A stretch of 54,222 bases of DNA from Gammaproteobacteria bacterium. Lineage in GTDB: Bacteria > Pseudomonadota > Gammaproteobacteria > DSM-16500. The stretch spans positions 1-54,222 of the forward strand of contig JABDBV010000001.1 of NCBI GenBank assembly GCA_013288395.1. Direction: 5' to 3'. The position numbers and the translations under genes are program-made. Under the pieces are notes generated by a model. That model made no database searches, was not told the origin of the DNA, and worked only from the letters and a program-made list of their open reading frames with translations. This document shows positions 12,805-12,985 of the stretch, in pieces (the first letter of the stretch is position 1; each line of letters begins with the position of its first letter).

Positions 12805-12985
12805 CACTGTGATCGCTCCTTACTTATGAATTCGGGGCACTATCCCCATACATCTATTCGGAGCAAATCGTAATGTGGATGGGGAACCATGACTGCGAGA
12901 CGAGGCTAGCCCTCAAATGACGAACGGTTCCCCCATCCGCCTTGTTACACTGATCAAGTCTAACAAGGCACCCTAGACAGGTGGA
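12805..12985 (-). ncRNA. Predicted IS110 bridge RNA (5' stem-loop, target-binding loop, donor-binding loop)
   Basis: Stems 12939-12947/12961-12969, 12877-12888/12926-12938 and 12811-12819/12860-12869; loop segments match the target (TCGTCATT, CTCGCA) and donor junction (ATAGATG, ATAAG); ends approximate. Confidence 0.8.

Follow-up and report, generated by a model that had tools for sequence, protein, structure and literature searches.

The closest described relatives of the element reported here are bridge elements of the IS621 type. IS621 of E. coli, with a bridge RNA of 177 nt (PMC11208160, PMC11208158 and PMC13626964), has a two-domain recombinase with DEDD residues and a serine, and the same is seen in the element here. 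In both, the left end holds an RNA of a 5' stem-loop, a target-binding loop and a donor-binding loop. For IS621, it has been reported that the top strands are cut after the second base of the core and positions 6-9 are exchanged, which leaves mismatches beside the core, and that the bottom strand is nicked (PMC11208158, PMC13626964). The first core base is described as less conserved, and in the IS621 structure the right guide touches the protein through its G (PMC11208158). ISCro4/IS622 (10.1101/2025.05.14.653916; PDB 9t56) is of the same architecture. Another IS110 element, ISPpu10 of Pseudomonas putida, targets a multi-copy intergenic palindrome by means of a bridge RNA with tolerated wobble pairs (10.64898/2026.03.19.712850).

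The published work on IS621-type systems that is cited here has changed or matched both cores together. The CT core is treated as invariant in both partners in the discussion of PMC13626964, the CT preference is named as a constraint in PMC13396178, and the editing designs in 10.1101/2025.05.14.653916 are filtered for identical cores. Orthogonal cores (CT versus GT) have also been used to insulate guides. In Durrant 2024, right guides of 7 bp rescued cores other than CT when the two cores and the four guide positions were all altered at once, and the boundary method of that work retained concordant cores only. A natural mixed core is not described in the passages covered of PMC11208160, PMC11208158, PMC13626964, PMC13396178, 10.1101/2025.05.14.653916, 10.1101/2024.01.24.577089, 10.64898/2026.08.31.748434, 10.64898/2026.03.19.712850 and 10.64898/2026.04.29.721476; one may nevertheless be in print. 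As such systems are catalogued by the hundred, one more bridge recombinase adds little. A mixed core is of modest weight: a natural TT × CT system would offer a test of whether the first core base must match.

In the window, by which is meant the whole stretch of 54,222 nucleotides that was analysed, an IS110 element of 1181 bp lies on the minus strand at 11816..12996, bounded at each junction by the place where the top strand is inferred to be cut, behind core base 2. On that strand, the left junction (12992..13005) comprises the left target (13005-12999), a TT core (12998-12997) and the right donor (12996-12992), whereas at the right junction (11811..11824) the left donor (11824-11818) is followed by a CT core (11817-11816) and the right target (11815-11811). 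There is no target duplication; the flanks rejoin to an exact repeat end that stands intact 21 times in the genome. The element is a single copy in the 1.33-Mb assembly (57% complete). In an assembly of a public run, possibly from the source sample and so not independent, one contig covers 11787-13049 with zero differences and spans both junctions. The read depth over the element was 29 against 12-16 on the flanks and is not taken as a copy number. The contigs of four runs showed no joint of a circle or of an empty site, and no RNA run among the public runs listed contains the stretch, which speaks neither for nor against expression. It is a real, intact IS110 bridge element, and this identification is in itself ordinary. 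We hold with good confidence that the element is an insertion sequence of the IS110 family whose recombinase gene is intact, that it lies within a palindromic repeat of the CGTC-like type and has TT at the left junction and CT at the right one, and that its left end, predicted to make an IS621-type bridge RNA, likely guides the recombination of a TT-core target with a CT-core donor. Because the target core is TT and the donor core CT, unlike the CT/CT of IS621, it is classed as an IS110 element with an IS621-like RNA and not as an IS621 isoform.

The recombinase of 311 aa is encoded at 11853..12788 on the minus strand, behind AAGGAG at 12798-12793, which resembles a ribosome-binding site. It matches PF01548 with 71.5 bits (cut-off 29) and PF02371, the C-terminal Tnp domain, with 73 bits (cut-off 21.3). 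Its PDB matches are IS621, a distant protein (E 1e-30), and ISCro4 (E 2e-30) only. D10, E54, D96 and D99 of the DEDD set and S233 are intact and align with D11, E60, D102, D105 and S241 of IS621, and S233 is invariant across 50 sequences. These matches and residues support the RNA-guided recombinase proposed in a preliminary description of this DNA. The enzyme was also called compact there; its length was given correctly, but 311 aa falls inside the 300-460 aa range of IS110 recombinases in Durrant 2024. Among 7999 candidates scored in the protein search, 5613 were relatives, and the best of these are 82-89% identical, mostly on contigs of about 1.2-2 kb.

The insertion site lies between convergent deoC and ankyrin genes, where the element splits one arm of an 87-bp palindrome that has inverted 11-bp tandem arrays on either flank. 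The rest of the interrupted CGTC-like palindrome occupies 11735..11815, and its intact partner arm (11735-11748) has TT at the equivalent core position. The array on the left flank (12997..13068) has a period of 11 bp, and that on the right flank (11635..11743) is inverted with respect to it. The repeat end GTCATTGCGAG is found 60 times in the genome against 0.45 expected by chance; the exact CGTCATTGCGAG is present 52 times in the host genome (G000) and its reversed control 0 times. The 12-mer with a leading C before the repeat end is present in 31 of the 38 genomes of the genus. The repeat shares with the CGTC-tagged REP families (PMC3733652) the terminal CGTC tag followed by AT, the facing arms as inverted dimers, the intergenic position and the many copies, and it is likened to these repeats by description, without assignment to CGTC-1 to -4. 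Here it is often flanked by tandem copies of the terminus of 8-13 bp. A palindromic-repeat target is common to IS621 and the element here, although the CGTC-like repeat is unlike the IS621 target. ISPpu10, for its part, has a CT core and another repeat, and in our case the hairpin is on the right-target side.

Several other copies of the repeat in the window are unoccupied (30739-30825, 37062-37148 and 46238-46324, with single arms at 14827 and 19331). Tandem copies of the repeat's own terminus, with a period of 8-13, accompany many palindromes, for example at 11635-11743, 12997-13068, 37062-37148 and 46238-46324 as well as on other contigs. They are carried by 22 of 46 arms, and both arms are mirrored with the same variant unit, a pattern that points to slippage together with copying from arm to arm. 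With the full left target and 3/5 of the right-target bases inside it, the 11-bp unit forms a site nearly cognate to the guide. Three Y1 transposase-like genes (PF01797; G000:C12, C43 and C23, or L183-L185) were considered as the repeat's own mobiliser and set aside, as none adjoins a repeat end in its locus.

The bridge RNA predicted from the left end is about 170 nt long (12813..12982, minus strand), its ends being estimated from the positions of the -10 box and of the stem of the donor loop. Its 5' stem-loop is placed at 12939..12969 by the fold and the motif position. The target-binding loop (12877..12938), closed by the stem 12938-12926/12888-12877, contains an 8-nt left target guide ending in TT (12923-12916), a GAGG/CCTC inner hairpin (12914-12902), a 7-nt right target guide (12899-12893) and the handshake bases TC (12892-12891). 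The donor-binding loop (12815..12864) is closed by 12864-12860/12819-12815 and contains an 8-nt left donor guide (12857-12850), a GGGG/CCCC inner hairpin (12847-12834), a discontinuous right donor guide of 9 nt (12831-12823) and the handshake bases TA (12822-12821), all on the minus strand. The right donor guide pairs with 7 donor bases while two bases are looped out, and U159 is able to pair with A131 (IS621 numbering, PMC11208158). The last G of the right target guide fits the donor C and not the target T. The spacing of the donor loop is identical to that described for IS621 (G, spacer, 8-nt guide, AU; a 9-nt discontinuous right guide; two handshake bases). In the target loop the two differ, the left guide having 8 nt here versus 9 in IS621 and the natural right guide 7 nt versus 4.

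The minimum free energy fold gives all three stem-loops at -75.8 kcal/mol (z -4.5), and 0 of 200 shuffles were as good. When the 208-nt left end was dinucleotide-shuffled 20,000 times, no shuffle contained all four guide words and 6 contained three of them. Over 11400-13200, Rfam gave no family at gathering level, only weak miRNA-like matches on the palindrome. The hairpin and the two guide loops with their motifs, as marked in the preliminary description, are each found in place on the minus strand, and the fold recovers the three-stem-loop RNA predicted there. Two guides had been read too short: CTCGCA (12899-12894) is present but is part of a right target guide that continues to 12893, and ATAAG (12827-12823) is the last part of the discontinuous right donor guide. 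The matching of the guides to target and donor was likewise correct, but the difference between the TT and CT cores was absent from it.

Further support for this RNA comes from its relatives. A covariance model built from 7 seeds, which match by construction, finds the RNA in 75 of 83 and 62 of 80 loci, that is, 137/163; the 19 of 182 loci left out of the search had truncated left ends or were distant matches. Scans of DNA collections gave at least two loci above 50% identity. In an alignment fitted to the structure, 90% of the cells are paired, two-sided changes fall on 21 of 25 pairs in 75 sequences, and the stems have 420 such changes against 107 in shuffles. The junctions of the relatives were placed by the donor guides and not from empty alleles. 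When right junctions were placed by the left donor guide alone (95 placed among 111 distinct RNAs), the right target guide matched them at 4.27 of 5 positions, the shuffled mean being 1.47 and the maximum 1.95. For left junctions placed by the right donor guide (86 among 121 RNAs), the left target guide matched at 3.90 of 5 against 2.15 in shuffles (maximum 2.44), the best of two registers being allowed for real and shuffled guides alike. The relatives are kin and not independent, with 67 different right guides involved. The known handshake was also recovered: donor-loop base 166 is Watson-Crick paired with target base 7 in 54/56, and target-loop base 81 with donor base 7 in 49/56. The model matches and the covariation of the target guides with the flanks, in about 90 relatives, uphold the IS621 layout assigned earlier and answer the call for a covariation check made with it. 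The importance then given to a readable four-guide RNA was overstated, because readable guides are the rule in this group.

The TT core at the left junction is encoded in the left target guide; AG, the G of which fits C, is retained in the right one. Sites of the form GTCA-NN-GCGAG in the genome have TT in 60 of 66 cases and CT in 0 of 66, and the partner arm has TT at the core both here and at L181, L182 and L123. The unoccupied site must therefore have had TT. The recurrence of the split between TT and CT could be followed in 56 distinct RNAs with both junctions read, out of 121 parsed; the others were without a flank or failed the match filter, in which core base 1 was not used. The parser allowed the G-T wobble known from IS621 and replaced a stricter one that had yielded both junctions in 9 loci only. 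The arrangement is TT on the left and CT on the right in 8, and CT/CT in 48. The core at the right junction is CT in 84/84, and AG is present in the right target guide of 111/121 RNAs. In all eight TT/CT cases the left guide contains TT and the right guide AG, the core is preceded by GTCA, and the right target matches at 5/5. They are the element here, two copies in the congener G049 (L181 and L182), L021, L022, L024, L025 and L123, of which the first three are close kin. In L021, L022, L024 and L025, which make up 4 of the 8, the locus holds no partner arm, and the donor guide of L021 needed a shift of one base. In a quick tree of 55 proteins, from which the frameshifted L182 was left out, the TT label changes 4 times, and at least 2 changes are forced by well-supported branches. 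Judged from these sequences, the TT/CT arrangement is a recurrent natural variant of at least two lineages, always at GTCATT. Within the element itself, the mixed core is the sole unusual feature.

Could the site have been a CT variant of the repeat, entered by ordinary CT/CT recombination, with the left C later turned to T by mutation or by homogenisation with the flanking tandem array? The 11-bp array on the left flank could act in this way, and L044 provides a precedent for a TT guide at a CT target. This locus is sister to the TT-target L123 and shows that a TT guide may also accept CT sites. Yet CT is absent from all 66 repeat-end sites of the genome, L181 and L182 have TT without such an array, and the guide itself encodes TT in 8/8 cases over at least two lineages, which makes a later change of the core very improbable. 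Insertion at a TT site is thus retained as the reading. A separate arrangement is seen in L057, L063 and L140, whose left junctions use ends of the GTCATT type two bases out of register, so that the core is CT; these relatives and the TT/CT loci represent two solutions to similar repeat ends.

Two candidate causes of TT use were tried and dropped. His78 of the recombinase occupies the position of IS621 Asn84, the residue by which the partner of core base 1 is read. TT use neither requires this His nor follows from it: the TT loci have 4 His and 3 Asn, the CT/CT locus L023 has His, and His at this position is a trait of a wider clade. The U at position 8 of the left donor guide is weak as an adaptation, as it is present in 4/8 TT and 12/48 CT loci.

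Whereas the sequence, the junctions, the covariation and the recurrence are observed, the steps of expression, cutting and strand resolution that we infer would run as follows. By analogy with IS621, excision would join the element ends and form a sigma-70 promoter driving the RNA of about 170 nt. A predicted -35-like hexamer TTGATT (11831..11836, minus strand) would stand 17 nt from the -10-like TATATT (12994-12989) over the circle junction, making a weak promoter with 9/12 consensus matches; a junction promoter is predicted in IS621 as well, and a 9/12 level is reached in only 30/56 relatives. The target loop would pair with the repeat end over 8 nt of the bottom and 7 nt of the top strand, and the donor loop with the joined element ends. 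The top strands would be cut after the second core base, a T in both partners, and positions 6-9 swapped. The first core base would then resemble positions 6-7, which are mismatched, and would not have to be the same in both partners; as both junctions equal top-strand products, base 8 can presumably differ as bases 6-7 do. TT would have been reached by changing the left target guide alone to U, while the G of the right guide is kept, and its contact with the protein may be the reason for this. That G would form a G-T wobble before the exchange and a G-C pair after it, with a full right-target match of 5/5. From this we draw, as a tentative proposal that we would not yet back over its denial, that bridge recombinases of the IS621 type require a crossover core of a single base (T) and not of two, and that natural elements have been retargeted more than once to TT-containing CGTC repeats through the left target guide alone, with the CT donor kept.

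The mismatch might instead be harmless for another reason. The same element would give the same TT/CT outcome if only the top strand were joined, by single-stranded copy-out, with no heteroduplex at positions 6-8 to resolve. Single-stranded donor-junction products and a copy-and-paste model have been put forward for IS621 in a preprint (10.64898/2026.08.31.748434), and both junctions here are top-strand products. Bottom-strand cleavage in the synaptic complex, as given in PMC11208158, speaks against such a route, which we consider rather unlikely; it differs from the strand-exchange proposal in the resolution step only, where sequence data cannot separate the two. Whether the mismatch drives the strand exchange forward was also considered, and pair counting gave this idea no support; at position 8 there is a gain in the target loop and a loss in the donor loop. 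Over positions 6-8 of both loops there are 3 Watson-Crick and 2 wobble pairs before the exchange and 2 plus 2 after it, so that by simple count the handshake is not forward-biased, a difference from IS621 along with His78. Before the exchange, U81 is paired with A7 of its own target in 6 of the 8 TT loci, an arrangement of the kind inhibiting IS621 (PMC11208158).

A handshake without forward bias would suit an element that is inactive or nearly so, a relic with guides that still match, as would a single copy among about 60 available repeat ends and the frameshifts and stops in one of the two G049 copies. This is improbable in view of the intact reading frame and catalytic residues, of relatives, 75-88% identical and with identical target guides, that occupy two further copies of the repeat in G049, and of at least seven further proteins at 82-89% identity, mostly on element-sized contigs; moreover, the assembly is 57% complete and repeats often collapse. 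The frameshifted copy, L182 (G049:C1), has several frameshifts, from decay or assembly error, with RNA and junctions intact.

For the active element that we prefer, recombination would likely take place across a mismatch that genome-editing designs currently avoid, as the compared sequences suggest; the site pairs of ISCro4/IS622 were filtered for identical cores, unlike the apparently non-identical pair here. If the one-base core is true and can be carried over to IS621 or ISCro4, TT sites could take up an ordinary CT donor with better efficiency than full TT/TT recoding, the target range would be wider, and CT and TT cores would not be orthogonal.

The genes around the element give some indication of its host. 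At 8899-11547 on the plus strand, an ankyrin-repeat protein of 882 aa, its C-terminal half without assignment, opposes the deoC/deoB gene run and has the appearance of a protein for host interaction in an amoeba-associated bacterium. The neighbouring nucleoside phosphorylase has its best named relatives in Aquicella lusitana (76%) and A. siphonis (73%), and from this one gene the host is probably an Aquicella-like gammaproteobacterium.
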